NCBI GenBank assembly: GCA_963815195.1
Contig: CAWFGE010000019.1
Coordinates: 96,001-160,000 of the forward strand
Length of the DNA stretch: 64,000 nucleotides
Reading direction: 5' to 3'
DNA from: an uncultured Planctomycetaceae bacterium
Lineage (GTDB): Bacteria; Planctomycetota; Planctomycetia; Planctomycetales; Planctomycetaceae
Made by a program: the position numbers and the translations under genes. Shown piece by piece: positions 14,950 to 33,405 of this stretch (position 1 is its first letter; the number at the start of each line of letters is the position of its first letter). The notes below the pieces were generated by a model, which saw only the letters and a list, made by a program, of their open reading frames with translations, ran no database searches and had not been told where the DNA came from.

Positions 14950-16569
14950 TTACGGCCCCGTGAACGGTGGCGGAGTCGCGCGAAAGCCCTGCTGCAACCA
15001 GGACTCGTTCAATTCCTTCGCCATCCGCACGAGCAGATTCTGGACCTGGCGATGCACGCTCACGCGGTTTTTGACGATGAACAGATTGTCGACGATGCGG
15101 ATTCGGCCGTCGCCTTGGGGTTCCCAGGTTTTGGGTTCCACCAGATCATAGATCAACTGCCGAACTTCTTCGGGTTTGGCTGACCCGTGCAGGAGGTAGA
15201 CTTCGATGACCACATCCTCCGGCTTGGGTATTGCGGGACCTTCGAGCGGCGGCGCACCTTTGGCCTTTCTCTCCTTGATATTTTCCCGGAGTCGATCCAG
15301 AACCGCGGCGACCTCGGCTTGAACTCTTTCCGTTTGCCAGATCAAAACCAGGCCCGGCAGCGGTTCGGAAAAGCGGCCTCCGGTTCCGTCGATCTCCTCC
15401 CAAGGCCCCGAGGTTTCATTCCCCAAGGCCCGCTCCAATTGGCCGCGCTCGATCAATCCCGAACGCATCAAATCCCGCACGTCATAACCCACCGTGTGGA
15501 GCTTTTCGTCCGCGGCAATGATGGTGGTGATCGTGAGCGCCCCATCGGAAACAATCGCTTCCAAGCCCAACGGTTCGAGAATCCACCTGAGCACCGATTT
15601 GAACGTCATATCTTTGAGTTCGATTGTGATCGGCTCGTCCGGCGTGAGGCCTTCTTCGATGAGGGCCTGCTCATTCAGCACGATCGGGATTTTCAGTTCT
15701 TTGGCAAAATGAGCGGCGACTTCTTTAAGCGGGGTCTTTTGAAAATCCACCGACACCCGTTTGGCGAACGCCCGGCGGATTTCGAGCGTCTTGCTGTGGG
15801 GCGAAAGGCTGTCGAGGAACACGCTCTGGTCCTTGCCGAACTTGTCGTGGATAAACAACCGCAAGAGTTCGAGCACGCCCGGAATTTCATCGTGCACGCG
15901 TTCCGTTTGTCGGACCGACAGCACGCCGCCGTAGGCTTCCAACTGGCCGCCCGTGCCGTCCACATCGACCCAGGGTCCGCTGGTGTCGTACTCGATCATT
16001 TCTTCCAACCAGGAACGGCTGCGGTCCGTTCGAATCAATGTGTGGGCGCGAGCCCGCGGTTCGTAGCGGTGCGCCTCTTCCCATTTGAGCAAATCCGCGA
16101 TGTCGTAGTGCCGATTGTGAAGCCTTTCCTCCAGGGCGATCAGCGTCGTAATCTCAATCGCTTCGTTCTCGACGTCATAGCCCAGGCCCAGACGCTCCAG
16201 CATCTGGTCCAGAGCTTGTTTGAGCGGAGTCTCTTTCGCCTGGAATGACACCGGCTCATCGATCGCGACGCCTTCTTCCGTCAGCCCCTGTTCGTCGATC
16301 AGGAAGGAGACTCCGGCGGCTTTTTGGATTCGCTCGACCGCTTCGTCGAGCGGGACACTCTTTAGCTCCAATGTGATCGACTTTTCCAGCGCCTCGCGAA
16401 TCCTCGCTTCGGTTTCTCTCTGGGCGCGGGCCAGATCGACAAACGGGTTTAGCGATTCCCCCGCGGCGGCGGTTTCCTCGGCCATCGCCGATTCCTTCGG
16501 TTTCCCGGCGGACTTCTGCACGCAGCCAGCGAGACAGACAATCACAATCGGCCACAAATAACGCAACAT
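14950..16569 (-). CDS. Lipoprotein made of STN and secretin-N-like repeats, no secretin barrel (paralogue 1)
   Basis: Lipobox LAGC; two copies of PL..IDEQ.L.EEG...DEP plus TSGPW..DGTGG..V.QTERV; a final N-like domain. Confidence 0.75.
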   Translation of the reverse strand: MLRYLWPIVIVCLAGCVQKSAGKPKESAMAEETAAAGESLNPFVDLARAQRETEARIREALEKSITLELKSVPLDEAVERIQKAAGVSFLIDEQGLTEEGVAIDEPVSFQAKETPLKQALDQMLERLGLGYDVENEAIEITTLIALEERLHNRHYDIADLLKWEEAHRYEPRARAHTLIRTDRSRSWLEEMIEYDTSGPWVDVDGTGGQLEAYGGVLSVRQTERVHDEIPGVLELLRLFIHDKFGKDQSVFLDSLSPHSKTLEIRRAFAKRVSVDFQKTPLKEVAAHFAKELKIPIVLNEQALIEEGLTPDEPITIELKDMTFKSVLRWILEPLGLEAIVSDGALTITTIIAADEKLHTVGYDVRDLMRSGLIERGQLERALGNETSGPWEEIDGTGGRFSEPLPGLVLIWQTERVQAEVAAVLDRLRENIKERKAKGAPPLEGPAIPKPEDVVIEVYLLHGSAKPEEVRQLIYDLVEPKTWEPQGDGRIRIVDNLFIVKNRVSVHRQVQNLLVRMAKELNESWLQQGFRATPPPFTGP

Positions 16570-16651
16570 GAATACGGGTCCTTTCTCGCTCAATGAGCGG
16601 GGCAGTTTTTCTTCCTCAAATTGTTAGGGCGGGCATCCGTGTCTCCCGATG

Positions 16652-16753
16652 AACCGGGACTAACGCCCTGCGGCTAATAAATAAATGCTTTCCCATTGGC
16701 CGCCGGGCGCTAGCCCCGGTTCTTTTCCATTAGCCGCCGGGCGCTAGCCCAGG
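16652..16753. repeat. Cluster of REP-like units (consensus ttagccgcngggcgctagccccggtt)
   Basis: Copies at 16652-16677 (inverted), 16696-16721 and 16730-16753; same family at 62831-62856 and 62916-62941. Confidence 0.75.
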
Positions 16754-16839
16754 CCGTTAAAAATCTGGTGTTGACGACGATATGTCTTTGCGCAGCTTTT
16801 CGACCGTTCGTAAATTCAACTGTTTCAAATTTGAGAAAA

Positions 16840-17052
16840 AGGACCGAAGGTCCGGCCCTATGTCAGCCTGGGAACGGGAACGAACAAAATGCCGAAGCCC
16901 CAACGGGGCGGCCCTAAATCGCAATGGGTTGTTCCGTGGCGAGAGTTGCCACATAGGGCCGCCCCCTTGGGGCTTGCGTTTCATTGATCGTCCGTAACCC
17001 AGGGCGGCGCTGCGCTGGCCCTGGGCTGGCATAGAGCCCGGCCTTCGGCCCT
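16840..17052. mobile_element. MITE/REPIN-like nested palindromic element, copy 1
   Basis: Terminal arms aggaccgaaggtccggccctatgtcagcc / ggctggcatagagcccggccttcggccct; inner gccccaacggggcggccct / agggccgcccccttggggc; homologous to 31698-31951. Confidence 0.7.
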
Positions 17053-17160
17053 AATGCTTTCCCAAAAAAAACGAGAACAAAGGTGGCGCAAGCCAGAACC
17101 CGCGTTTTTAGACTTCAATATCAATTTTTTTACAGCCCAGGCTAGCCCCGGTTCGTTGAG

Positions 17161-18966
17161 TCATTCCGGATGCTTCGCCGGAGCCACGCGGAAGAAGCCG
17201 CCGGCTCCGCCGCCACCCATGCCCCCGCCGCCGAATCCGCCGCCACCCATGCCCCCGCCGCCGATGTTGCCGTTGCCGTCGCCGAAGGATCCGCCCTGGT
17301 AGGGCGGCTGGTCGGCTTTGTGCAGCTTTTTGAGGAACTCCTCCACCTCGTCCTGCACGGCGTTTTTGTTTTTGACGATCAGCGTGTGATCGATGATCAC
17401 GATGTTCCCCTCGCCGCCTTGCCCGCTCCAGGATTTGGGTTCCACGAGCGCGAACAGGGCTTTCTGCACGCTCTCCGGATCGGAGATGAAATGCATGCGG
17501 TACATTTTCGTCGTGACTTTCTGCGGATCGGGCGGCGCCGGCTCGGCTTGGGCGGCCGGCGTTTTCTGGATCTCTTTTCGCAGGTCCGCCAGGATGCCCG
17601 CGACCTGATTGCGGACTTTTTGCGTCTGGCGGACCACCAACAGACCGTCGAGCGGGGCTGCGACCGAGCCCCCGGTGCCGTCAATATTAATCCAGGGGCC
17701 GGAGGTCTCGTTCGTCAGCAGGTTCGTGAGCACCTGCCCGCGGTATTTGTTCTGATCCAAATCCCGCACATCATAAACCGCGGTGACGAGGCGTTCCTCG
17801 GCGGCGATATTCGTCGTCACATACAACTGCCCGTCCTCGACCAACGCGGTCAATCCCAGCGGATCGAGCTTGACTTTCAAAAGCGACCCGGCCGGCATGT
17901 CTTTGAGGTCCACGTTGACGGGCTCATCGATGGCAATGCCTTCCTCGGTCCAGGCCGGCTCATCGATGTTGACAGGCACGCCGAGCTTCTCGCCCATCTC
18001 GTCCAGGAACTCGTGAATCGGCATGTCCTTACACTTCGCGCTGACGACTTTCACGAGGGCCTTTTTGACCCTTTGATCTTCATCGGTCGCGTAATACGGC
18101 GGATGGATCTCGACGGACTTGGCGGGGAACTCGCGTTTGGTGAATTGCACGAGGGCTTTGAGGAGTTGATCGATCTCCGTCTGCACTTTATGCGTCTGGC
18201 GAATGACGAGATTGTTATTGACATAGGAAATCGAACCGCCCGTGCCGTCTACGGGTATCCACGGGCCGCTTGTATAATTCTGCAACGTGGAAATCAGCCA
18301 GGTCGGCGCGTCCGGCGAGATTGGCGGCAGGTAGCCCGAAGCTCCGAAGCCGCCGCAACCGCCAACGCCGAACTGCACGGGTTGGAGTTCCGAGAAAGGC
18401 CCCTCTCCCGCGGCCTCGGTGCGGTGTTTCTTGGCGTATTCCAGAAGGTCCCCCACCGGATAGGTGCGGGTCACGAGGATGTCCTCCGCGGCGATGAGCG
18501 TGGTGACTTTGACCAGGTCGTCATCGACGATCCACGTCAAGCCCAAAGGCGGCAGAATGCGGTCCAACAGCCGCGCCCCGGCCACGGGTTGGCCCGCGCG
18601 GTTGATCGGCTCGTCGATCGCCACGCCTTCTTCGGCGAGAGCTTGCTCATCAATCATGATGTTCGTGCCGGTCTTCTGGGCAATAAACCCCACGGCATCC
18701 TGCAAAGGAGTGTCCTCAAACATAACCTCCACCGGTTCCCGCAGCCACGCGTCGATCTCCGCCGGGGTCGCCGCGGCCCGGCGGGAAAACTGCACGGGGG
18801 AGGCCGCTTTCTTGCCCTCGGCGTTCTTGTCTTTGGCCTTGGCTTGGGGAGTTGGTTGTTCCTTCGGTTTGTCCTTCCCGTCCGTCTGGGCGGCAAGCGG
18901 ATTCCGCCCGGCGAGGCCCAGCGCGAGAACGCAAAGAAAACCAAGCAGCCGAGGAGAGCGTGACAT
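17161..18966 (-). CDS. Secreted STN/secretin-N repeat protein with Gly-rich C-terminus (paralogue 2)
   Basis: Signal peptide; same repeat architecture as 14950-16569; ends GGGGMGGGGFGGGGMGGGGAGGFF. Confidence 0.78.
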   Translation of the reverse strand: MSRSPRLLGFLCVLALGLAGRNPLAAQTDGKDKPKEQPTPQAKAKDKNAEGKKAASPVQFSRRAAATPAEIDAWLREPVEVMFEDTPLQDAVGFIAQKTGTNIMIDEQALAEEGVAIDEPINRAGQPVAGARLLDRILPPLGLTWIVDDDLVKVTTLIAAEDILVTRTYPVGDLLEYAKKHRTEAAGEGPFSELQPVQFGVGGCGGFGASGYLPPISPDAPTWLISTLQNYTSGPWIPVDGTGGSISYVNNNLVIRQTHKVQTEIDQLLKALVQFTKREFPAKSVEIHPPYYATDEDQRVKKALVKVVSAKCKDMPIHEFLDEMGEKLGVPVNIDEPAWTEEGIAIDEPVNVDLKDMPAGSLLKVKLDPLGLTALVEDGQLYVTTNIAAEERLVTAVYDVRDLDQNKYRGQVLTNLLTNETSGPWINIDGTGGSVAAPLDGLLVVRQTQKVRNQVAGILADLRKEIQKTPAAQAEPAPPDPQKVTTKMYRMHFISDPESVQKALFALVEPKSWSGQGGEGNIVIIDHTLIVKNKNAVQDEVEEFLKKLHKADQPPYQGGSFGDGNGNIGGGGMGGGGFGGGGMGGGGAGGFFRVAPAKHPE

Positions 18967-19085
18967 GTTTCATCCTTCCAATCAGAAAAGGCCGGAGATG
19001 TTCCTGAGAATTCTTAAAGGGCGACGATTGCCGGTTTCGGGATTTTTTTGATGGGAAATGACCATTCGAGTATACCAGCCACGGC

Positions 19086-20851
19086 TCAATCGGCGCGCTG
19101 GAAAGATCGCGGCTTCGCCGCCGGCGGGACGCGGAATACGCAACAGCCCATGCAAGGCCACCGAAAGCCCTCCTGTGGATTGCCGTTGTCGTCGAGGTTC
19201 GAGTCGTTCGCACGCCTAAGTTGGGGCGAGCCGTCCGCCCGATAAAGTTGAGTGAGGAGCTTCTCGACTTCTTTCTGCACGGCGATCTGGTTTTTGATGA
19301 TCAGCGTATGATCGACGATCACAATGCTCCCCGTGCCGCCTTGACCGGTCCAGGAGGCGGCCTCGATCAATCCGAGAATGGCGGCCCGCACGCTGGGGAG
19401 GTTGGAGACGAAATCGAGGCGGTACAGTCTTGTGATGACTTTGCGGGGATCGGGCGGAGCCGGCTCGGCGACGGCGGGCATGGGTTTCATTTCTTTTCGC
19501 AATTCCGCGAGCAGAGCTGAAATCTCCGTGTGCACTTTTTGCGTCTGGCGGACGACGAGGAGTCCCGCGAAAGGGGCCTCCACTTTTCCCCCTTCGCCGT
19601 CGATGTTCTGCCAAGGGCCGGAGGTCTCGTTCTCGACCGCTTGGGCGACGCGGGGCCGCTGTTTTGGCGGAGGCCCAAATCCCGCACATCATAAAGCGTC
19701 GTGACGAGCCGTTTCTCGGCGGCGGGGATCGTGGTCACAAACAACTGCCCGTCCACCGCCAACACGGTGAGTGAAAACCGCGTTAGCGCCTGATCGAGCA
19801 CGGACCTGGCCGGGACGTTTTGGAGTTGGGCCGTCACCCTTTCGTCGAGCGAAATCCGCTCCTTCGCCAAGGCGGGCTGGTCGAGAACTAACGGCACGTC
19901 GAGAGTCCAGGCCACTTCATCGAGGAACCGGCCCACCGGCATTTTGTCCGCCGAGATGCTGACGGTTTTCGCGAGGGCCTTTCGGACGGCCTCATCTTCC
20001 TGCGTGCCATAGTAGGGCGGATGAATCGCGACCGCTTTGGGTATCAACGGCACCTGGGTGAATTGTCGAAGCGTTTTAAGAATCTGATCGATCTCGGTCT
20101 GCACTTTATGAGTTTGGCGAACGACGAGGTGGTTTTCGAAGTACGAGATCGAACCGCCCATGCCGTCGATGACAGTCCAGGGGCCGCTGGTGAGATCCTG
20201 CAACAGTGACATCAACCACAACGGCGCGTCCCGCGGGATTGGCTCGTAGGCGGGTCCGCCATCACTGACACCCGGGCCGGGATCCGGGCGGTGGGTCTTG
20301 GCGTATTTCAGAATTTCCGCCACCCGATAGGTGCGGGTGACGAGAATTTCCTCCGCCGCCGACTTCGTCGTTACCTGGATCATGTTGTCATGCACGAACC
20401 ACGTCAGGTCCAGTGGTTCCAGAATGCGATCCAGGCAGCGAGCCAACGCGACGGGCGTTTGGTCGCAGGTCACCGCAACGTCCATCGCCACGCCTTTCTT
20501 GGCGAGGGCCTGTTGGTCGATCACGAAGTTCAGGCCGGTGGCATCGCGGAAGAACTCGATGCAAGCGGCCAGCGGCGTGTCGATGAACTCCGCATCAAAT
20601 CCGGGATCGTTCAACGTCCTTTGAACATCTTCCGCCGACGGCGCGGCGGTTTGGGAAAGCTGCACAACGGACGCGGTTTTCTTCTCTCCGGCCGCCGTTC
20701 CTTTGGTCTTGGCAGGATCGGGCGATTGCTGTACCAACCGCGTTTCGGCGGGGTCCGCCTTCGAGAGCGCCTGCGCGCACAGCGGATTCCGCCCCGCAAC
20801 AGCCGATATCAATAAACAAAAGATCCCAAACTGCAACGCACGCCGCGGCAT
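19086..20851 (-). CDS. Secreted STN/secretin-N repeat protein (paralogue 3); frameshift at ~19650
   Basis: ORFs 19487-20851 and 19086-19583 join into a protein collinear with paralogue 2 (shared RQTHKVQTEIDQ, IHPPYY, DHTLI). Confidence 0.75.
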
Positions 20852-21236: not shown

Positions 21237-22646
21237 ATGCAGGAAACGCAAACACGCGACTCGGCGGGATTGGGAAACAAGACCGAACACTCCGCAGCCG
21301 AGGCGAACTGGGCGGCCGCGGTGGGGATGTCGCCGCTCTTATGGGGCGGAGCGCTCACGGTCGGCTTCTACGAAGCGATCCCCTACCTGCCCGTCAAAAG
21401 CGAATTGGCGAAGCGGTATTTTTGCGGGCACCCGCTGGAATATGCGATCGCGGGATTGTTCTTTCTGGGCATTGCGATCTTGGCGCTCAAGATGTTCCGC
21501 CTGAGCACCGAAAAAGCCGCCCTCGGGGCCGAGGAACTGGGCGAGGCGGATCTCTCCCCCACAGGCGATGCCCTGGAAATGGCCGGCCGGTTGGAAGCCC
21601 ACGCGAAATCTCTGCCCCGCGGCTGGCGGCAGACGGTCTTGCTGCGGCGGATCAGCGATGTGTGCCGGTACGTCAAAGGCCGCCGGTCGGCCGACGGTTT
21701 GGAAGAGCATTTGAAATACCTCGCGGATCAATCCTACGACCGCGCCCACGAGAGTTTCGGGCTGGTCCGCACGATCAATTGGGCGGTGCCGATTATTGGG
21801 TTCTTGGGAACGGTGGTGGGGATCACGCTGGCGATTGCCAACGTCACGCCCGACCAATTGGACACGTCGCTCAACGCCGTCACCGGCGGCCTCGCGGTGG
21901 CGTTTGACACCACGGCCCTGTCCCTGTCGCTGACCTTGGTCCTGGTGTTTTTCTATTTTGTCGTGGAACGCTCCGAGCAGCAGATTCTTTCCCGCGTCGA
22001 AGACTTCGGCAGCCGGCGGTTGGCGTGTTTGTTCCCGATTTCCCGCGGCGGATCGCAGGGAACGCTCGCCGATGTCGAGCACCAGGCGGCCCGGCAGCTT
22101 TTGGAAAAAACGGAAGCCCTGATCACCTGGCAAACGGAGCTTTGGAAAGATTCGCTCGAATCCCTCAGAACGCGGTGGACGGACACGCTGGCCGATCAGC
22201 AGGGGCAGTTGAGCCTGTCGCTTCAGAAAGGCATGTCCTCGACGCTGGCCGATCATTCTCGGCAGCTCGCGGAGCTTCGCGGCGGTTTTATGGACGCATT
22301 TCAAAAGATCACCGAACAAGTGCAACACCAGATCGCCGCGGCCCAGGCCGAGCAGAATCAAAAGATGGATGCGCTGGTGACGGTGCTGTTCGAGAAAACC
22401 ACCGACTGGCAAAAGCAACTGGCGAAGACGACCGCCGTCATGCAGCAGGAGTTGGAGGAACTCAAATCGCACAAAGACGTGCTCCTCAAAGTCGTCGCGG
22501 GCGAAGAGGACCTGGTGCGTCTGCAAAACCGTCTCACCGACAACCTGGAAGCCGTGCGGACGGCCGAAGCCTTCGAGCAGACGCTGCACAGCTTGAGCGC
22601 CGCGGTGCATCTCCTCACCGCCCGCACGCGCCCGAACGCCGCGTGA
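21237..22646 (+). CDS. MotA/TolQ/ExbB proton-channel family protein with long C-terminal coiled-coil tail
   Basis: WAVPIIGFLGTVVGITLAI and GGLAVAFDTTALSL are typical TolQ/ExbB helices; about 220 aa of Q/E/L-rich helical sequence follow. Confidence 0.88.
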   Translation: MQETQTRDSAGLGNKTEHSAAEANWAAAVGMSPLLWGGALTVGFYEAIPYLPVKSELAKRYFCGHPLEYAIAGLFFLGIAILALKMFRLSTEKAALGAEELGEADLSPTGDALEMAGRLEAHAKSLPRGWRQTVLLRRISDVCRYVKGRRSADGLEEHLKYLADQSYDRAHESFGLVRTINWAVPIIGFLGTVVGITLAIANVTPDQLDTSLNAVTGGLAVAFDTTALSLSLTLVLVFFYFVVERSEQQILSRVEDFGSRRLACLFPISRGGSQGTLADVEHQAARQLLEKTEALITWQTELWKDSLESLRTRWTDTLADQQGQLSLSLQKGMSSTLADHSRQLAELRGGFMDAFQKITEQVQHQIAAAQAEQNQKMDALVTVLFEKTTDWQKQLAKTTAVMQQELEELKSHKDVLLKVVAGEEDLVRLQNRLTDNLEAVRTAEAFEQTLHSLSAAVHLLTARTRPNAA

Positions 22647-23024
22647 TGTTATCTATCGAAACAACGCCCGAGCGAATCCCGCAATGCAAATGACCAACGG
22701 GATCAAAAAGAGCAGAATCGGGATCGGATTGGAAATCAGAAAAAGATCGAACCGTTTGCCCGATTTCTTCTTCCATCGCCAAAACGACATAGTGCCCTCA
22801 ATAACTATGAACCGCTACGCGGCTAACCCATGCCAATATTTGCCCTGAGTTTTATTCGTATCATTCGTGGGATTCGTGGTTCCTTGCTTTCCTCTGGGAC
22901 GGCACATTTGCGCTGAACTTAATCTGTGTCCTTCGTGGTTCCTTTTTTCCTCATCTTATCAAAACGTGTGTTGAACGCATCGGATAAATCCTGACGGACA
23001 ATTCTGTCTCAATCGGCGATTGGT

Positions 23025-25707
23025 ATGAGTGGTTCTCGCGCCCGCACCAGCAACTCCGTTTCGCTGTTTCCGTTTCTGGCGGTGCTGGTGTGCGCGATGG
23101 GGGCGCTGATTTTCCTGTTGATCGTGACGACCCGCAGGATTCGCACGGAAGCCCTGGCCAAGGCGGTCGCGGCGCGCGAGGAAAAAGCCCGCGAAGGCAT
23201 CCTTCCTCCCAAAATCGTCCGGCCGGAACTTCCGCTCATGATGCCCGCTCAGATCGAGCCGGAATCAAACGTGGTCGGGCCAATTCCGCCGAAACCGCCC
23301 GAACGCATCGAACCCATTCCGGGACTCGTCGTTTTGGGGCCGAGCCAGTCGGAACCGGTTATGCCTCCGCCGCGGGGCAAAACTCCGTCGGCGGACCCCA
23401 AACCGGTTTGGCCCTCCGCCGTCGCCCAGAAGCCGCCGCGGAACGATCCGAACACGAAGCTTCGCGCAACTCGCAAATCTCAAAGCCGCCCAAGACGCGC
23501 AGCGCAAGCGGATCAAACAAAAAGAACAAGCCGCCGCCAAACTGAAACAGCAAGTCGGCAGCCTCACCGAAGACCTCAAGAAAATCAATTCGGAAATCGA
23601 AACCTTAGCCCGCCAGCGGACCAAAGACCGCGAAACCCAGCTCGAGCTCGAACGCGCCAAGAACCAGATCCTGGGCCAGATCGCGAAGGTCGATCGCGAC
23701 ATCCAGGAAGCGCAAAAACAAAATCTCGGCGCACCGACGAAGTTTCAGGTCGTCCCCTTTGACGGGCACACCGGCACGAATTACCGGCCGATCTTGATCG
23801 AATGCACCGCCGAGGGCATGCGGTTCCAGCCGGAAAACGTGCTGCTCAAGCACGAGGACTTCGACGGCTTCACCGTGGGCAAAAATCCGCTGCTCGCCGG
23901 GGCGCGGGCTTTGTCGGATTATTGGATGAAAATCAGCCTGCGTTCGGGCGGCCGCGAGCCGGAGCCTTACATCCTGTTGATCGTCCGGCCCAGCGGCGCG
24001 AAATATTATGCGGCCCGCCGGCTTCTGGAGCCGCTCGGCCGGCCGTTCGGCTACGAGTTGGTGGAAGAGAGCCTGCCCCTCGAGATCCCCAAAGCCGACC
24101 CCGTGGCCACGGAGCTTTGTAAGCGGGCCGTGGAAGAGGTGCTCAAGGAGCGCGAGGACCTCCAGCGGCTGATCGTCTCGCGCGGACCGGAATCGCTCAG
24201 CCGAAATCCCAACTACCGCGTGATCCGCAAACCCGGCGGCGGGTTTGAGGTGGAATACGATCCGCACGGCCATCCCGCAGAAGGCGACTTCGGCGACGGT
24301 CCCGATCCGTTCGCGAAGAATCCGCTCGGCAGCGAGGGCTTCGATTCGCCCGCCACAGAACCCGGCGAAGGCAGCGGCGGCGGATCTTTCCATCGCCCGG
24401 ACAGCGCGGGAGCCGGCGGTTCGCCGCTCGTGACTCGATTGCCAGAACCCGGCACGGGCGGTGGAACGAATTATGGCTCCGGCACCGGCCGCGCGACGGG
24501 CCCGCAAGGATCCGGAACATCTCGGCGAGGCGAAACGTCCCCAGGAACCCTCGGCACGGGAAGAATTCCGTCCGCGGAGCCGTTCGCCGCGTCGCAACCG
24601 GGCAACGGCTTCGGCACGCGAAACCGCGAACCGCACTTGCTGCCCGATGACCTGATCCGCCGGTCCCGCGGACAACTTCCCTACAACGGACAGGCCGGCC
24701 CGCCCACACCGTCGATGGAGACGCATCACGGAACGCAAGCGGGACCGTTTCCCGGTGCCGAACCGCAACAGACGCCCGAACAATTCGGCAGGGTACAGGA
24801 AGAGCCTGGCCAGGGCGGTTTTCAGAATGATCCCAAAAGCGAAAAACGCGGAAAAGGTTCTCCGTTGCCGGCCGATGAACTGCCCCGGCTCGGAACGCTC
24901 GGCCGCACCGGACCGACAGGCGGTGGAGCGGGCTCTCCCGACCGCAAGGAACTTCTCACGCCCGAGGAACTCATCAACCGCTCGCCGAATTTGATTGCCG
25001 ATCCCCCCGCGAACGGTTCTCCCTCGTCGAACCGCTCGGGTGAACCGGGGCCAACCGGGACGGACGTTGGTTCCGCCGAGCAAGTTCCAGACCAACCGGC
25101 TTCGCCGGGACAAAGGCCGGCTTCGCAGGCGAGTCCCAACCGCGTGAATTCCCCCCATGCCAGCGGGCAAACGCCGCCGGAAATGCCTTTGACTTCTGCC
25201 GATCCCAATAATCATCGGGGAACGCCGTCGAATTTGCGGTCCTTCGGCCGTCCGAGCCAAAGCCAGTCTCCGAGCAGTTCGCCGCCCTCGGAACCGCCGA
25301 GCATGGCCAACCAACCGCCGATGCCGAACTTCTTCAATTTGAACTCCCGCCGGCAGATGGAAAACCGGACGACGCCTTATCAACGCCGGTGGGGGCTGTC
25401 GGATCCCCGCGCGAGCATTGGCTTTGAGCGCGAGGTCACGATTCGGGTCGAACCGAACCGCCTGGTCGTGGGGGATGCGTTCGCCGTCTCGTTCGATGAG
25501 AAAACGACCAAGGACCAGCTCTCCGCAGGCATGCTGGAAGCGGTCGAACGCAAAGTCCGCACCTGGGGCCAACCGCCGCGGAGTTTTTATTGGGTGCCCA
25601 CGATTCACTTCCAATCCCCACCGACGGGCATGCCCATCTACCAGCACATGAACGCCACCGCCAAAACCTGGGGCCTGGAAACCGTGCTCACGGAAACACG
25701 AAATTGA
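23025..25707 (+). CDS. Large ExbD/TolR-like single-TM protein (~890 aa); frameshift at ~23465
   Basis: N-terminal TM SVSLFPFLAVLVCAMGALIFLL, Pro-rich linker, coiled coil (QLANLKAAQD.. read in the frame of ORF 23794-25707), domain PYILLIVRPSG..GYELVEE, long Gly/Pro/Ser low-complexity region, C-terminal domain. Confidence 0.65.
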
Positions 25708-25741
25708 CAGAAAGCCAAGCCACCACGAAACACACGAAACA

Positions 25742-25937
25742 CACGAAAAGATTTAACGCAAAGGCGCAAAGAGAAGGCGCAAAGAACGCAGAGGAACCCA
25801 ACATAGAGTGATGTAGACATTATTCAACAGATGTTAGCTTCCGAGAAGTTCGTGCTCACTTATCGATTTTCATCCCGAGGGAATTCTTTGCGGCCTCTGC
25901 GTCTTCCCTTTGCGCCTTTGCGTTAAATCTTTTCGTG
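25742..25937. mobile_element. MITE-like long inverted repeat
   Basis: 25742-25776 (cacgaaaagatttaacgcaaaggcgcaaagagaag) pairs with 25903-25937 with one mismatch, and pairing continues inward; flanked by cacgaaaca-type 9-mers. Confidence 0.7.
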
Positions 25938-26003
25938 GGATTCGTGTCTTTTATTGGCGGTCTTTGCATTAAATCTCTTATCTGGTAGCCGGGGACATTC
26001 GTC

Positions 26004-27218
26004 ATGAGTCGCCGCCAAAAAGCCGAGATGGATTTTGGGTCCGATTCGTTTCTGGACATCATCGCGAACATCGTGGGGATCCTGATTATCCTCATCGTGA
26101 TTGCCGGCGTGCGGGTCAGTCAGCAGGCGGCCGAGGTGGCGGAATCCGAGACCACCGGCAGCGCGCGAGCCATCGCGGACGCCGAGCCCGCGTTTGTTCC
26201 GCCCTTGCCGCTGCCCCCCGAATTTCCCAAGGCGGAACCCGCCCTCACGGACGCAGCGCCGCTCGATCCCCGAATCACGGCGGCGATTCTTGCCGCTTCG
26301 GAACCCCAGTCTCCATCCAAGCCGAAGCCTCCGCGGTTGATGCCGGGCTATGTTCCCGATCCTCCCCAACCGATCGCGCCCTCGGCCAAGTTGCTCGATT
26401 CGATCGCGGCTCTCCAAACCCAGATCAAAGACCTCGACCGAGCATCAAAACAGATCGACGGAACCGCCGAGCAATGGCGGAATTGGAAATCCGAATTGGA
26501 CAAGCAAGCCGAGACCGCCCGCAAAACGCTCCAGAACGGCTGGGAATATGCCGACGCGGAGAACCGCAGGCTTCAGGATTTGAAGCGGCACCTGGATCGC
26601 ACCAAGCTCGTGTTCATCGGCAAGCAGCAGGAGTTGGCGAAGGCCGCAGAGCAAACGGCGAACATCGAGACGCTCCGGCACAAGCTGACGCCGGTGAGCC
26701 GGGAAGTCAACGACAACGAAATCCACTTCCACGTCAAGGACAACCGCGTGGCCTATGTGCCGTTGATGGATTTGGTGGAACGCATGAAGCCGCAGATCGC
26801 CCGGCAGAAGGATTGGCTGATGAAGTACCGCGAGCACCGCGGCCGCGTGGGACCGTACCGCGGGTTTGCGTTGGATTATGTCGTGGTCCGCGAGCGAATC
26901 TCGGCCCTCGAGCAAGCCCGCTTAGGCCCGGGCGTGGGGCGGGTGATCCCGATGCTCCTCAAGTTTCATCCGCAGCCCGAACTCGTCCGCGAATCGCTGG
27001 ACGAAGCGCTCCGGCCGGGTTCGGTGTTTATCCGCGAACTGCAATTGGCGGATGTCAAAACCACGCTCACGTTTTGGGTGTACCCGGACAGCTTCGGGAC
27101 GTATCGCAAGCTCAAAGAGTTCGCGCATGCGGAAGGTTTCACCGTCGCCGCCCGCCCGCTCCAGGAAGGCGACGTGATCTCCGCCTCGCCCTGGGGCAGC
27201 AAATCCGCCGGTCAATAA
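26004..27218 (+). CDS. ExbD/TolR-like single-TM protein with coiled coil
   Basis: TM GSDSFLDIIANIVGILIILIVIAG containing Asp; Pro-rich linker; coiled coil; C-terminal LTFWVYPDSF..GFTVAARP. Confidence 0.7.
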   Translation: MSRRQKAEMDFGSDSFLDIIANIVGILIILIVIAGVRVSQQAAEVAESETTGSARAIADAEPAFVPPLPLPPEFPKAEPALTDAAPLDPRITAAILAASEPQSPSKPKPPRLMPGYVPDPPQPIAPSAKLLDSIAALQTQIKDLDRASKQIDGTAEQWRNWKSELDKQAETARKTLQNGWEYADAENRRLQDLKRHLDRTKLVFIGKQQELAKAAEQTANIETLRHKLTPVSREVNDNEIHFHVKDNRVAYVPLMDLVERMKPQIARQKDWLMKYREHRGRVGPYRGFALDYVVVRERISALEQARLGPGVGRVIPMLLKFHPQPELVRESLDEALRPGSVFIRELQLADVKTTLTFWVYPDSFGTYRKLKEFAHAEGFTVAARPLQEGDVISASPWGSKSAGQ

Positions 27219-27486
27219 AGTCGGGTTCTTCCGGCGAAACAGGGGAACGACGACCGTGTGAAAGAAATTCCTGTCCGCGCTCTTTCACCTCCCCAATGGC
27301 CCAAAGGGGAGGTGAAATCCGTGGTTGATCATCACACAAAATGATCATCCGCGTCCGCCCCCCGCCGATTCGCCGGATGAGCGGATTTTTTTCGACTTGC
27401 CGCGACCCAACCGCAATGGCGACAATCAATAACCCGGAAAGGGGGGGCGCGCGCCTTTCCGCGGAACTCAAAGCCGGAGAACTCCC

Positions 27487-29524
27487 GTGATGCGAACTCG
27501 GTTCTTGCTGCTCCTTCTGTCTGCCGCGGTCTTGCTGGGAAACGTTTCCACGGGATTGGCCGAGGTGCCGACCTGCGAATGGAATGCAAACCAACTCTTT
27601 GACCTCTGTGAAACCGAGGGGCTGGTGCTGTCGGCGGACAAGTCCGCGCTCCAACTGGCGTTCGGGACGGTGGTCGAAGACGACGGGCCGGCCGCCGGGT
27701 ATTCCTATCTTCCGAACCTCGAAACGCTCGACGGCAAAAAACTTGTGCGGAAGATTCTGGTGGCCGATCGCGTGCCGGCCCGCGCGGCCGCGATTCTTGC
27801 GGCCGGGGGCGGCGATTTGGAGTTTCGCTTGAACGGCAAACCGCTGGCTGTCCTGCGAACCCGGCAACTTGGCCCCTATTGGCAGGCTTATGAATTCGAT
27901 CCCGCCTTATTGCGGAAAGGCGAAAACGAAATCATCGCGGCCGGGAAGGGCAAACTCTGGATCGCCCGGAACGAGGACTTCGCCAACGGCTCGCTGACGA
28001 GAAAACAGCATCCCAACCGGAGCGCCAAGAGCACCGACGGCGGCCGATCCTGGAATGACGAGGCCCTGGGCGACCGCGGGAACGCGGACGGCGAATACTG
28101 CCTCCGCCTGGCTCTCGATCAATTCCAGCCACAGGGCCGATTGACCACGCCCGTGCTCGATACAGGCAACCTGAGTAGCAAATTCGTCGGCCGGCCGCTC
28201 GCAGACTGGGGGTCGGTCGAGCTGAAAGTCGATCGGTCGTCCCAAGCTGCAGGCGAGTGCGGGGTTCGCGTTCGTAGCGGCGAAACCGCTGTGCCCGGTC
28301 GCGATTGGACCGAATGGAAGTCGGTTTCCCTCAGCCCGGACGGAGCCGCGGCGCTTCAAGATCTCAAAGGCCGGTTCTTCCAAGTCTCCTGCACATTGCG
28401 GAGTCTCGATCCCCTCAAGTCGCCGCGTTTGCAAAAGTTGTCGCTGAAATCCTCGCCCAAATTCGCCGGGGATTGGACGGACCGGCTCCAAGTGATTGCG
28501 GCCGACAATCCGCCGATCAAACGCAGCTCGATCGAGTTTCGCTACGAGAACTCCCAGCATCCGCTGCTAAAAAAACTTCGGCGGGATTACGATCTGGATC
28601 AATTGGCGGCCGGGGCGGAGTCGGAGTTTGAGGTCATCACGCGGCTCGCGCGGTGGTCTTCCAGCCGCTGGGCGAAGCGGGGCCATCTGGGCGAAGCGTA
28701 TCCGCCCTGGAACGCGCTCGAGATTCTGAAGGATCACGCCGACGGCACGCCGGTGGGCGGCTTTTGCCAGCAGTACAACCTCGTTTTTCTCCAAGCCTGC
28801 CAGAGCCTGGGGATTCCGGCGCGGATGGTTTCGATCGGGCCGAGCGTGTTCACCGACCGCATCCGCAGCGGTCACGAGACGGTCGAGGTCTGGTCGAACG
28901 ATTATCAAAAGTGGGTCTACGTCGATGGAAACACCGCCTGGTACTTCACCGATCCAAAAACGAACATCCCCTTGTCGCTGTGGGAATTGCGGCAGGCCCA
29001 GTTGGACGCCTTCGACAAAAAGCCGACGCCCGCGCCCCGGCTCGTCAAGCTCGCCGAAACCCGCTCCACTTGGGAGGGCCTGGGGAGTTTTCCGGCGTTT
29101 CTCGAATTGCGGTTGGTGCCCCGGAGCAATTTCCTTTCGCAGGCGGCTCCGTTGCCGGTGAATCAGGGCATGCGGGGCTGGTTCTGGACGGGCTACCGGG
29201 TGTGGAGCGACGAGCGGCTTCCCGCGCGGGACATCTATCCTCACCGGATCTTCAAACGCGGAAACTTCGAGTGGCCGGTGAACTGCGTGCACTTCGTTTT
29301 GGAACCGTTGGAGACAGCCGGGACACATCAAAGTGCATGTGGATGTGGAAATGCCCAATCGGAAAATCGTGTCGGCCCGCATCGGGAAAGAACCTGCGAA
29401 GGCCGTCGCCTCCGGGTTCGATTGGCAGTTGCATCCCGGCCGAAACCGGCTCGAATTGACGCCCATCAACCAATCCGGCCGGAGCGGGCGGACCAATTCA
29501 ATCGAACTCCAATACGATCCCTGA
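27487..29524 (+). CDS. Secreted transglutaminase-like domain protein; frameshift at ~29325
   Basis: Signal peptide; GFCQQYN (Cys) and GHETVEVW..WVYVD (His/Asp); the likely true C-terminus is ORF 29333-29524 (WQLHPGRNRLEL). Confidence 0.75.
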
Positions 29525-29841
29525 ACACGCAGAATGCGGTGCGCGTCTTGGGATGTGGCAGTGAGTTCCTAAAGCGGAACCGCCTCGCGGGAAATTCCCG
29601 CGCGCCGGGTGCCGTAGGCCTTGCGGTTTTCGCGCGAGTTTCCAAGAATGCGTGGGATTTGCGGGCGAAAACGCCCCATTCTTCACGCCGATCTTCTCAA
29701 CTCTGGGAAATCATTTCTAAGGGTTCTCTAGCTTCTGAGAAAAGCGGCAGGAGGCGGCTTTTGTGGTTGTCAGTTTCCTAAGATCCTGACAGAATTCCGT
29801 CGGCGCTAAGGTTCTGACGATATTTTTTCTTTGAGGATGAC

Positions 29842-30795
29842 ATGGCCAAGAAGAAGTCCACCAAAGACATTCTGGCCGCAGCCCGCGCGCAAGCGGCAAG
29901 TTCCGAAGGCGGTTCGGAAGAGTCTCCGGCCGAGGAAACACCGGCCGGCCAGCCAGCCGAAACTCCCCAGCCGAAGGCTCCGCCAAAGACGGGCGGCGGT
30001 TCGCCCGGATCGACCAAAGACATCCTGGCCGCGGCCCGCGCAGCGGCGGCGGGCGGCGGAAGCAAAACCGCATCCTCTGACAGCCCCAAGCCCGCCGCGA
30101 AGAAGCCGGCGGCAAAAAAAACCGCCGCCGTCGTCGTCGGCGAGAAGCCCTCGGTGCAGGAAATGCTCAAAGCCGCGCGGGAAGGCAAACCCGCTGGCGA
30201 AAAACCGGCCGTTCCCCCGCCGAAAAAGCCCGTCGCGGCCGGGGCGATTCGCGCGGCGAAGAACAAAGCGGCCCAGGAAGATCAAGATCGCCGCGTGTTC
30301 TTGCTGTCGTGGCTGTTCGCGCCGTTTATGCTGGCGTGGATTCTGTTCTCCGGGGCGACGGTCGCGTTTTTGTTGGGGATGGCCCGGTTTATGATGCCCA
30401 ACGTCCTTGTCGAGCCGCCCAGTAACTTCAAAGTCGGCGGTCCCGGCGATTTTTCTGCGGGCACCGTGTCCACCAAGTTCAAGGCGGAATACGGCGTGTG
30501 GGTTGTGAACACCGTCTATCAAGGCAAGCAAATCATCTTCGCCCTCCGGTCCGTGTGCACGCACCTGGGCTGCACGCCAAACTGGCTCGAAGGCGAGCAG
30601 AAATTCAAATGCCCCTGCCACGGCTCGGGGTTCTATATCGACGGGATCAACTTTGAAGGCCCCGCGCCCCGGCCGCTGGAGCGGGTGGGCATCGCCTTGG
30701 CTCCCGACGGCCTCTTGCAAGTGGATAAAAGCCTCACATTCCAGCAGGAAATGGGCCAATGGGAAGACCCCGCCTCCTATTACGAGGTGGCGTAA
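29842..30795 (+). CDS. Rieske [2Fe-2S] subunit of a Rieske/cytochrome b complex
   Basis: CTHLGC and CPCHGS boxes, GPAPRPL, Tat-like DRRVFL before the TM helix; long Ala/Pro/Lys N-terminus. Confidence 0.95.
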   Translation: MAKKKSTKDILAAARAQAASSEGGSEESPAEETPAGQPAETPQPKAPPKTGGGSPGSTKDILAAARAAAAGGGSKTASSDSPKPAAKKPAAKKTAAVVVGEKPSVQEMLKAAREGKPAGEKPAVPPPKKPVAAGAIRAAKNKAAQEDQDRRVFLLSWLFAPFMLAWILFSGATVAFLLGMARFMMPNVLVEPPSNFKVGGPGDFSAGTVSTKFKAEYGVWVVNTVYQGKQIIFALRSVCTHLGCTPNWLEGEQKFKCPCHGSGFYIDGINFEGPAPRPLERVGIALAPDGLLQVDKSLTFQQEMGQWEDPASYYEVA

Positions 30796-30866
30796 TCCTT
30801 GGTTGTTTGTGCGTTGTGATTGGCTCAGTCAGGTTCGAGGAAACCTTGGCGGGATAGGAACATTCC

Positions 30867-31640
30867 ATGTCGGTTGGTGACTACATTCGGAATTCGCAGG
30901 TTTGGAAGAGTATCTTTCGGCATCCCGCACCGGTGGATCGGCGAAACCGCTCCATCGTGATGCTGACCAACTTCTTCCTGCATTTGCATCCCGTGTCCGT
31001 CAAGAAGGAAGGCATCGCCTTGTCCTACACCTGGTGTATGGGCGGGATCACCTTCTTTCTGTTCCTGGTGGAAACGCTCACTGGCGTTCTGCTGATGTTC
31101 TACTACCGGCCCACGCTCGAATGGGCCTTCAACGACATCCTGGCCCTCCGCGATGTGCAGACGCTGGGCATCATGCGGGAGATTCACCGCTGGGCGGCCC
31201 ACGCGATGGTGATCACCGTGTGGCTGCACATGTACCGGGTGTTTCTCACGGGAAGCTACAAGCCGCCCCGCGAGTTCAATTGGGTCGTCGGGGTGTTGCT
31301 GTTGGTGCTGACGTTATTGCTGTCGTTCACCGGCTATTTGCTGCCTTGGGATCAGTTGGCGATTTGGGCCATCACCGTGGGCTCCAACATGGCCCGCGCG
31401 ACGCCGTTCCTCGGCAACGAAGGTCCGGGAGCCCAGATATTAAACGTGGGCGGGTTCGACTTGATTACCAGCGGCAGCGATGCCCGGTTTCTGCTCTTGG
31501 GCGGAAGATTCGTCGGCGAGGCGACGCTCAACCGGTTTTACATTCTTCACTGCGTGGCGATCCCCTTGGTTGTCGCGGGGCTGATCGCGATCCACTTCTG
31601 GCGCGTGCGAAAAGACGGCGGCATCAGTCAGCCTTTGTAG
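30867..31640 (+). CDS. Cytochrome b6-like subunit (N-terminal half of a split cytochrome b)
   Basis: WCMGGITF, EIHRW..LHMYRVF..YKPPREFNW, TGYLLPWDQ, ILH-14 aa-HFW. Confidence 0.95.
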   Translation: MSVGDYIRNSQVWKSIFRHPAPVDRRNRSIVMLTNFFLHLHPVSVKKEGIALSYTWCMGGITFFLFLVETLTGVLLMFYYRPTLEWAFNDILALRDVQTLGIMREIHRWAAHAMVITVWLHMYRVFLTGSYKPPREFNWVVGVLLLVLTLLLSFTGYLLPWDQLAIWAITVGSNMARATPFLGNEGPGAQILNVGGFDLITSGSDARFLLLGGRFVGEATLNRFYILHCVAIPLVVAGLIAIHFWRVRKDGGISQPL

Positions 31641-31697
31641 CGGGAAACTCGAAATCCAAAACAAATCCCAATTTCAGTCGTTTCAAATTACGAAAAA

Positions 31698-31951
31698 AGG
31701 ACCGAAGGTCCGGCTCTATGTCAGCCCAGGACGCAGTCCTGGGGAACGGGAACGAACAAATTGCAGAAGCCCCAACGGGGCGGTCCTAAATCGGAGATAG
31801 GCAAGTGCCTCAGTCCGTGGCGAAAGTCGGTATTCCCATTGTGTTTTCCCCCAAGGGCCGCCCCGTTGGGGCTTGCGTTTCATTCATCATCCCGGACCCA
31901 GGGCGGCGCTGCGCTTGCCCTGGGCTGACATAGAGCCGGACCTTCGGCCCT
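31698..31951. mobile_element. MITE/REPIN-like nested palindromic element, copy 2
   Basis: aggaccgaaggtccggctctatgtcagcccagg ... cctgggctgacatagagccggaccttcggccct; homologous to 16840-17052. Confidence 0.72.
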
Positions 31952-32001
31952 CAAATCCTGATTTTAATTCCCCCACAGTCTGGCAAGGACGGGTGAGGCC
32001 C

Positions 32002-33354
32002 ATGTTAGAAGCACATCCAGATCTGACTCGAGAGGTGATTCTCGGCTTGGGTTGGATTTATTTCCTCTTGTTTTTGATGAACGTCTGGTGGGCTTACGGC
32101 AGCTTCAAGCGCCACGAGCATGCTCAGATTCGCCTGGGCGGACTCTTAGGCGACGGGCAGGATGTGCCGGTTGCGGGATTCTGGGCGCTGTATGCGGCCG
32201 TTTTGAGCATGGTCGCGTTGGGGCACTTCACGGGGGCCGGAAGTCCCGACACCTTCATCATTCGCTTGCCGGAATGGCTCAAGTCCGGGGTGGACGGCGT
32301 GGTGGCGAACCCCGTGACCTACTTCATCTTCTCGATCGCGTTGTTCGGGGCGATGATCGTGTTCCGGAATTGGTGGACCCGGCCCACCGTGTCCTGGATT
32401 CTCCTGAACGTGGCGCTGGTGTCGATGGCGCTCGCCATGACGGATTGGGACTTCCGCCAAATCGTCGGCAAGCCGGACAACGTGCCGATCGTGTCGATGC
32501 TGTTCATCGTGTCGTTCTTCACCTGGATTTATTTCACCCGCGCGGGAGACAACGACCGGCGGATTGAGCAGGGACTGCCGCTCCGCGAGAAGGCGAACGG
32601 CGGCGATGAGAAAATTCTCGTCTGGCCCGACCTGGTCTATACCGAATTGATCTGCATGGTGGTGCTCACGGTGATTCTGACGGCATGGGGCATTGCCCTT
32701 CAGGCCCCGCTCGAAGAACCCGCCTCCGCCGTGAAAACGCCCAACCCCTCGAAGGCTCCGTGGTATTTTCTGGGCCTTCAGGAAATGCTCGTGTATTACG
32801 ATCCCTGGCTGGCGGGGGTGGTGTTTCCCAGTGTGATTCTCGTGGGGCTGATGGCGATTCCCTTCATCGACTTCAATAAAAAAGGCAACGGCTACTACAC
32901 GTTCAAGGAGCGGTGGTTCGCCGTCTCCACGTTCCTGTTCGGCTTTTTGCCCTTGTGGGTCGCGATGATCGTTTTGGGCACGTTCCTGCGGGGTCCGAAC
33001 TGGAACATCTTCGGCCCGTTCGAGTTCTGGGACGTGCACAAGCTCGAGGTGTTGAACAACGTCAACCTCTCGGAGGTGGTCTATCTCAACTGGCTGGACA
33101 CATCGCTGCCCGAGGCGATCTGGCTGCGCAAGGCGCCGGGCTTTATTGCGATTTTGGTGTATTTGTTTTTGCTGCCCCCGCTCTTGGCCGCCACCATTTT
33201 CCGGGGCATGTTCCAGCGGATGGGGTTCATCCGGTATCTGGTGTTTATGATGCTGCTGTTATTGATGGCGGCCCTGCCGATTAAGATGGTGCTTCGCTGG
33301 GCGTTCAACCTCAAATACATCGTCGCCATCCCTGAATTTTTCTTCAACATCTGA
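32002..33354 (+). CDS. Cytochrome b C-terminal half (subunit IV-like) with extra N-terminal TM domain
   Basis: VWPDLVY, APLEEPA..TPNPSKAPWYFLGLQE (PEWY-equivalent); about five extra TM helices upstream; ATG at 32002. Confidence 0.88.
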   Translation: MLEAHPDLTREVILGLGWIYFLLFLMNVWWAYGSFKRHEHAQIRLGGLLGDGQDVPVAGFWALYAAVLSMVALGHFTGAGSPDTFIIRLPEWLKSGVDGVVANPVTYFIFSIALFGAMIVFRNWWTRPTVSWILLNVALVSMALAMTDWDFRQIVGKPDNVPIVSMLFIVSFFTWIYFTRAGDNDRRIEQGLPLREKANGGDEKILVWPDLVYTELICMVVLTVILTAWGIALQAPLEEPASAVKTPNPSKAPWYFLGLQEMLVYYDPWLAGVVFPSVILVGLMAIPFIDFNKKGNGYYTFKERWFAVSTFLFGFLPLWVAMIVLGTFLRGPNWNIFGPFEFWDVHKLEVLNNVNLSEVVYLNWLDTSLPEAIWLRKAPGFIAILVYLFLLPPLLAATIFRGMFQRMGFIRYLVFMMLLLLMAALPIKMVLRWAFNLKYIVAIPEFFFNI

Positions 33355-33405
33355 CGTATCAACGTATCGTCGAAATCTCCCCTCCAGGACAGGATTCGAT
33401 AAGCC

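Follow-up and report, generated by a model that had tools for sequence, protein, structure and literature searches.

A MotA/ExbB-family wheel gene with two unequal partners, one usually lacking the membrane aspartate, encodes a candidate 5:1:1 ion motor of Planctomycetia

The 5:2 ion motors MotAB, ExbBD, TolQR, and ZorAB are modeled with two equivalent axle aspartates that alternate (PMC9389320), and ExbD domains, as dimers, bind strands of their partners (PMC10907165). Two different axle partners per wheel are not new, having been predicted in print for two systems. An AglQ–AglS heterodimer is predicted within AglR5 (PMC11761067), both proteins having a conserved Asp and the stoichiometry being called unknown (PMC9389320), and for TolQ-like wheels the predicted partners are heterologous TPH-vWA pairs in which each monomer has one Asp, in a study that also predicts TolQ-like genes beside two TolR-like genes in Planctomycetes–Verrucomicrobia–Chlamydiae (PVC) bacteria (Williams-Jones et al. 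2025, PMC12204202). Unspecified ion transporters whose periplasmic domains are very large have been noted as well, in a paper whose excerpts do not describe the genes considered here (PMC12505986). We analyzed a 64,000-nucleotide stretch of DNA, hereafter the window, from an uncultured Planctomycetaceae bacterium (assembly GCA_963815195.1, contig CAWFGE010000019.1, positions 96,001–160,000), in which three same-strand (+) genes, A, B1, and B2, follow one another in that order at 21237–27218, where a preliminary description of this DNA had placed a co-oriented trio. Judging from the sequences and from structural models, A and the paralogous single-pass proteins B1 and B2 probably assemble as a 5:1:1 ion-driven motor, with B2 supplying the sole axle Asp and B1 an ion-blind helix. 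No published description of the trio or of a one-Asp axle was found in the literature searched, which left subscription journals largely outside.

A (21237–22646, + strand, 469 aa) was assigned as a wheel subunit of the MotA/TolQ/ExbB family from the Pfam MotA_ExbB profile (PF01618; 52.5 bits against a cut-off of 22.9, res. 147–255), hydrophobicity, and homolog alignment. Three hydrophobic transmembrane (TM) segments (res. 69–87, 183–201, and 225–243) and a C-terminal tail of 224 aa, which is conserved at its end and likely helical and cytoplasmic, bear out the earlier picture of an ExbB/TolQ-type subunit with canonical channel helices and a ~220-aa tail. The pore helices contain Thr192, Asp224, Thr225, and Thr226; the triplet Asp224-Thr225-Thr226 (AF-DTT, 21906–21914, +) has Asn in place of Asp224 in a variant wheel, A', treated below. 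Thr192 is kept in 120/120 A homologs and AFDTTA in 114/120. Like ExbB and TolQ, A belongs to PF01618 and keeps both pore threonines when aligned to their pore helices; unlike them, it has the 224-aa tail, shows AF-DTT where they show EAL-AT, and stays well short of the equivalog cut-offs (TolQ, 39.6 against 221 bits; ExbB, 27.9 against 206 bits), in a 94.6% complete genome with no match to TonB_C, a profile that divergent transducers would escape.

Two other motors resemble A in part. The long, presumably helical wheel tail recalls Zorya ZorA–ZorB, and weak matches extend over channel and tail (ZorA profile NF033915, 33.7 bits, below the cut-off of 100; PADLOC ZorA, E = 1.2e-10). Unlike in ZorAB, B1 and B2 are without an OmpA/MotB peptidoglycan-binding domain and without a ZorB-type PADLOC match, there are no defense genes nearby, and the trio is single-copy and class-wide. 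Zorya membership is ruled out by the NF033915 score, by the lack of any NF033914 match over cut-off in the source genome, and by PADLOC, which gave 0 matches on 12 proteins of window 11.1–36.6 kb. The Thr192/Thr225/Thr226 pattern resembles T158/T185/T186 of PomA, a presumed equivalence; the PomA residues are tied to Na+ selectivity, two of the positions being Ala in H+ stators (PMC10374538). Unlike PomA–PomB, the trio is not flagellar, has no OmpA-like peptidoglycan-binding domain, and has an unequal axle.

B2 (26004–27218, +, 404 aa) consists of a TM helix (res. 13–46) bearing an invariant Asp18 (codon 26055–26057), a Pro-rich linker, an 89-residue helix (res. 128–216), and an α/β domain (res. 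239–394) with a β insertion and a conserved C-terminal tail. B1 (23025–25707, +; from open reading frame (ORF) calls split by a frameshift) begins with a basic N-terminus, a TM with Ala19 (codon 23079–23081), and a Pro-rich linker (23025–23462, +). The part after the frameshift (23464–25707, +) holds a likely coiled coil, derived from sequence and lying outside the folded model, followed by domain 1 (23734–24102, +; β-β-β-α-β-α-β order), an unstructured linker, and domain 2 (25411–25698, +), ExbD-like in its predicted model. Profile comparisons show domain 1 to be a homolog both of domain 2 and of the domain found in a family of short paralogs (P 87.5, E = 3.6e-6; P 96.9), and the linker that connects the two related domains of B1 is Pro/Gly/Ser-rich and spans ~355 aa. 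The common layout attributed to the partners in the preliminary description holds in that both are single-TM proteins with related TM and stalk, but B1 has two domains and the long linker.

The two partners differ at the pore position, where DSFL-D18 in B2 and FPFL-A19 in B1 are read directly from the sequence. Profile comparison identifies B1 and B2 as paralogous in TM and stalk, and the Asp/Ala register rests on the alignment of their TM profiles (E = 3e-5) and on naturally occurring forms of B1 in which this position is Asp. Asp is present in all 93 B2 proteins parsed at 100 loci, a set including two duplicates and two short paralogs, and in 148/148 parsed from 150 representatives. The B1 residue at the same 100 loci is Ala in 54, Asp in 23, Thr in 3, and Ser in 3, with 17 unparsed; in the short B1 paralog it is Ser in 118/118 parsed of 120. 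The earlier statement that only B2 carries the Asp is correct for B2, where it is invariant, and usually for B1, but Asp stands on both partners in 34 of the 93 rows tabulated below. The TM motifs likewise have the form compared earlier with ExbD, but no statistically significant likeness to ExbD (TPMID) was detected. Elsewhere in the source genome, where A, B1, and B2 occur in one copy each, there are 11 Pfam ExbD matches, all away from the trio, with four ordinary ExbD–ExbD pairs; Asp is kept in 9/9 of the ExbD TMs seen. Shorter paralogous trios of other planctomycetes come in two forms, one with a Ser/Asp axle and a long wheel (L114, L115) and one with a short wheel and Asp on the first partner (L116, L117); the named matches to the Ser paralog come from planctomycetes only.

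The residue on B1 is associated with the type of wheel. Where the genes are linked, residue 224 of the wheel is Asp at 52/52 loci with Ala or Thr on B1 and Asn at 16/17 loci with Asp on B1. The Asn224 form is a distinct paralog, A', with many pore-helix differences (G195H, G218E, W182G/A, and others), found at an identity of at least 45% in 34/201 genomes of the order and mostly replacing A. Genomes G394 and G409 have both A and A', and G325 has a stop-laden A' remnant directly downstream of an A-type trio. A single origin of A' appears in 80% of bootstrap trees, but not in the best tree. A table of 93 rows contains 47 combinations of A with a non-Asp B1, 1 of A with Asp, 33 of A' with Asp, and 12 of A' with Ala; three rows without a parsed domain, four duplicates, four frameshifted loci, paralog loci, and loci of unknown wheel were dropped beforehand, for G394 and G409 the linked A was the wheel counted, and four motifs were read by eye. 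Unlinked wheels of Asp-B1 genomes are exclusively A' in 4/4, as predicted. Asp on B1 nearly always accompanies A', and A' does not demand Asp.

On a tree of B1 periplasmic domains, with the TM left out, 10 changes of the B1 state are counted. Of nine independent pairs drawn on well-supported branches, 6.2 on average differ in the same direction, 0 differ in the opposite direction, and 2.8 do not differ. The TMs of the sister loci L096 and L080 differ by little beyond Ala/Asp, and in 4/29 A' genomes B1 carries a B2-type TM, which argues that the B1 and B2 helices are interchangeable. L096, like L081 and L083, is titled Candidatus Kuenenia; the B2 of these loci nests among Planctomyces-like metagenome-assembled genomes (MAGs), and the labels look wrong.

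One family, f4, lacks a close wheel. B1 and B2 are adjacent in 8/8 fetched f4 loci with no A within 12–13 kb, and in all eight both TMs are plain anchors that have each lost the FL[A/D] motif; loci of other families have A–B1(Ala or Ser)–B2(Asp) in 10/10. The A profile finds only distant matches in 18/18 f4 genomes (E = 2e-39 or weaker), against E = 8e-94 or better in 12 B1-carrying comparison genomes of other families. This pattern, which may reflect a single event of wheel loss, suggests that A constrains both TM motifs, including the Asp-less one, and that B1 and B2 form a pair in their own right. The distant long-tailed wheel of f4 (AFDST) has a different partner gene adjoining in 6/9 loci (L119, L297–L304). 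The TM of that partner, EDSFVAVVVTK, has a Lys inside the membrane and belongs to another motor type without assignment.

Set against the described systems as a whole, the trio would work like ExbBD/TolQR, as a variant of the 5:2 ion motors and a member of no named system. As in ExbB–ExbD as well as TolQ–TolR, both partners are single-pass with a basic N-terminus, B2 has a mid-membrane Asp, and domain 2 of B1 is modeled as ExbD-like; unlike there, the partners are of unequal length (~400 and ~900 aa), their stalks are long and helical, and one is usually Asp-less. The TPH-vWA systems also have a TolQ-like gene without an ordinary ExbD/TolR and two different large partners beside it, and that pair is predicted to rotate in the pentamer and pass force without TonB/TolA, as we propose for the trio; their partners, however, have vWA and one Asp each, whereas B1 and B2 have coiled stalks, predicted ExbD-like domains, and one Asp in total. 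AglR–AglQ–AglS of Myxococcus gliding combines one wheel with two different TolR-like partners, but AglQ and AglS are short, both have Asp, and they serve the Glt machinery, no genes of which were recognized among the trio's recurring neighbors. Family searches of B1 and B2 (Pfam, equivalog, and PADLOC profiles) gave nothing beyond coiled-coil noise. Pfam ExbD (PF02472) was not listed at E = 0.1 for 72 B2 sequences (25 commonest of 171 families) or for 61 B1 periplasmic sequences, and no vWA or OmpA-family Pfam entry was among the matches listed for B1 and B2. With scores below the TolQ, ExbB, and ZorA cut-offs, no Pfam ExbD, no vWA, and no Glt link, the trio indeed fits no textbook system, as had been proposed.

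In the 5:1:1 motor that we favor, five copies of A would build the wheel, with the B1 and B2 helices both inside its pore. Ions would pass B2-Asp18 and the Thr192/Thr225/Thr226 ring and so move the axle, while the wheel Asp224 would render a second axle Asp dispensable or unfavorable. The coupling ion may be Na+, by analogy with the three threonines of PomA; as the residue equivalence is inferred, Na+ is one possibility. At 1.5 Å per residue, the 89-residue helix of B2 would extend ~13 nm beyond the Pro-rich linker, and the paired stalks, predicted to be long helices topped by ExbD-like periplasmic domains, could extend a long way into the periplasm and transduce force themselves, with no need of TonB/TolA. 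The ExbD-like domains may catch an envelope target, the tethered domain 2 of B1 being the likely catcher. A single ion site would permit one step per ion over a longer arc, or rocking, without two-site alternation. The asymmetric 5:1:1 assembly of the preliminary description draws comparative support from the synteny, the invariant B2 Asp, the tracking of the B1 residue with wheel type, the decay of the TMs without A, and the predicted ExbD fold of one B1 domain; the asymmetry is common, not universal, and two unlike partners had been predicted before. A broader picture, which we offer tentatively, is that of a single-site 5:1:1 rotary housekeeping motor of most Planctomycetia, perhaps Na+-driven, in which the second acidic group has moved to wheel Asp224 and returns to the axle with the variant wheel, and whose axle proteins act as their own envelope-shaping transducer, or as a passive tether where the wheel is lost.

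Several observations weigh against this reading. The pair test is marginal (median p = 0.031, range 0.016–0.063), and the unlinked wheels of Ala-B1 genomes are, contrary to prediction, exclusively A' in the 3/3 with a detectable wheel, two more being without a match. Strict charge compensation between wheel and axle is rejected by these three genomes and by the 12/45 A' rows that keep Ala, and because A' differs at many positions, the association of B1-Asp is established for the A' paralog and not for residue 224 by itself. In one genome (L046) all three proteins of the trio carry Asp. The retention of B1–B2 in f4 without a wheel weakens the need for force, and no conserved target, outer-membrane partner, or transducer was found next to the trio genes. 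The model of B1 domain 2 matches the ExbD fold at Z = 7.4, in a tie with Pelota (8.2), YqgF (7.7), and uS11 (7.3), and HH-align comparison of the three domains and both TMs with a 50-sequence ExbD profile was not significant (scores 12.7–14.8; block-shuffle maxima 13.6–15.1).

Domain 2 of B1 is predicted from its model to have an ExbD-like fold, and the same fold for the B2 domain and B1 domain 1 is only indirectly supported; of the ExbD relationship envisaged earlier, the model of domain 2 favors one instance, but the profile and Foldseek comparisons were not significant. HH-align in global mode, or with a deeper B2 profile, brought no improvement, and Foldseek gave nothing at E = 0.001 or better for both models against the PDB or for B1 against viral models. 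In a wide VIA search the matches listed were RNase H-like folds in the case of B1 and coiled coils in that of B2, with ExbD absent from the lists, and a second structure search did not list ExbD for B2. With domain 2 filling the match lists, domain 1 of B1 was barely sampled; these absences are not evidence of different folds. A PDB sequence search with the B2 profile returned coiled coils only, and ESM Atlas matches were hypothetical proteins only.

A conventional 5:2 motor, in which two copies of B2 form the Asp axle and B1 is an accessory TonB/TolA-like transducer beside the wheel or on the B2 stalk, seems unlikely but accounts for several features. The B2 Asp is invariant, and a B2 homodimer would thus restore the textbook two-site mechanism; the Pro-rich part, ~355-aa linker, and terminal domain of B1 resemble the TonB/TolA plan; and, as the genome has no TonB_C match, other transducers are needed. 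An accessory B1 sits poorly, however, with a TM that is paralogous to that of B2, in register, and without a His/SHLS-type motif. It also leaves unexplained the repeated acquisition of Asp at the pore position of B1 together with a wheel change, the substitution of a B2-type TM for that of B1 in four genomes, and the joint decay of the B1 and B2 TMs without A.

Less likely again is a gated ion leak or mechanosensor, in which the stalk of an A5–B1–B2 complex would tether the outer envelope, strain would open the pore, and the A tail would relay the signal, as proposed for ZorAB. A single Asp does break the alternating mechanism, f4 does keep B1–B2 without a close wheel, and the A tail, with its conserved end, weakly matches ZorA profiles. 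Against a sensor stand the pore threonines and the B2 Asp, kept as in working motors, the lack of a conserved signaling neighbor, and the absence of any Zorya or defense gene among 12 neighbors of a single-copy, class-wide trio.

The break in B1 (2-base frameshift, 23462–23464, +) is very likely a sequencing or assembly error. A 173-nt contig of a different run carries two extra bases following 23462, is otherwise identical, and restores the frame, repairing the indel suspected earlier near 23465; with a depth of 2.3 and an origin in the same study as the best-matching run, it is weak alone, and the best DNA run has no coverage of the site. Alignment to a same-genus genome (G001) leaves a 2-nt gap in the window at the break, G001 having a 1-nt gap of its own ~70 nt beyond. 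Among loci L021–L100, the whole B1 is a single ORF of 590–921 codons except in L021, L022, and L090, and assemblies with a broken B1 have further genes split too. The dN/dS against G001 is 0.12 for A and 0.16 for B2; within B1 it is 0.035 for the TM (42 codons), the strongest constraint among the segments measured, 0.30 for the N-terminal fragment, 0.16 and 0.11 for the domains, and 0.39 for the linker. We assign the break to error because of the restoring contig, the G001 gap, the low dN/dS, the intact B1 of relatives, and the other split genes. It is very improbable that B1 is decaying as a pseudogene in this genus and that the trio amounts to an ordinary ExbB plus two drifted ExbDs. In favor of this, the window and 3/3 same-genus genomes fetched have a frameshifted B1, and repeats are inserted into intergenic space. 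Against it, the breaks lie at differing sites in assemblies with other split genes, the B1 Ala is kept across families, and the proteins fall under the ExbB/TolQ cut-offs and outside Pfam ExbD; we reject decay on the strength of the contig together with a dN/dS of 0.04–0.16 over TM and domains.

The trio is widespread in one planctomycete class, where relatives mostly keep the A–B1–B2 order in single copy, in answer to the question of its conservation raised by the preliminary description. A B1 stalk-plus-domain profile matches once each in 122/151 near-complete genomes of the class (f1, 35/36; f3, 19/19; f4, 36/36; f5, 6/31), and a single match per genome across the class makes the trio unlike a defense island. 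Scanning genome contigs for B2 confirmed 214 relatives, with 79 of 80 kept being planctomycete by title; across the phylum, with only 7 candidates per genome scored, the B2 profile reached E = 1e-8 in 12/251 genomes, every one of them from f1 or f3. The B1 and B2 genes overlap in 39/63 loci of relatives. In the window they are separated by a 66-nt inverted repeat (25728–25951), a dispersed genomic repeat with 29 loci that is not part of the trio; a second dispersed intergenic repeat (27280–27400) has 34 matching loci in the genome. No sigma-70-like promoter was found, and the runs listed as carrying this DNA include no RNA run.

No constant neighbor emerged among the gene families recurring at the loci. 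The earlier report of no TonB/TolA, OmpA-like, or ZorC/D/E gene nearby agrees with negative results for TonB_C, for Pfam OmpA on B1/B2, and for PADLOC on the 12 proteins. In 32/98 loci a divergent gene upstream of the trio (L040:903–5003, −) encodes a ~1,340-aa protein without a known family; the source genome has its copy on another contig (G000:C21:71327–75443), outside the window, and we do not claim it as part of the trio. At 14950–20851 (−) lies a tandem of three related proteins in which STN-like (secretin/TonB N-terminus) segments are repeated, divergent from the trio and not among the recurring neighbors, the nearest being split by a frameshift (19086–19583 / 19487–20851). Downstream of B2 are a transglutaminase-like protein with a likely signal peptide (27487–29781, +) and an atypical bc-type complex (29842–36573, +) made up of a Rieske protein, a cytochrome b divided into N- and C-terminal parts, and a large cytochrome c with multiple haems. 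Elsewhere, a second orphan motor (G000:C16:16246–18321, −) comprises a short MotA-like gene, a TPLLD-TM partner, and a third single-TM protein; the TPLLD partner has a coiled coil and an α/β domain, and the motor may bridge ExbD and the B1/B2 plan.

Many genes of planctomycete cell biology are unassigned, and a tractable model organism is available (PMC10632474); five supplements of that Planctopirus study contain no MotA/ExbB/TolQ term. Because the trio is present in one copy per genome and class-wide, its job is most likely housekeeping, in tethering or remodeling the planctomycete envelope. If true, a conserved one-Asp motor would be a direct test of the need for alternation, with natural controls in the one- and two-Asp versions of sister genomes, the two wheel types, and the wheel-less family. 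For planctomycetes, the trio is a single-copy candidate for an energy-linked envelope machine.

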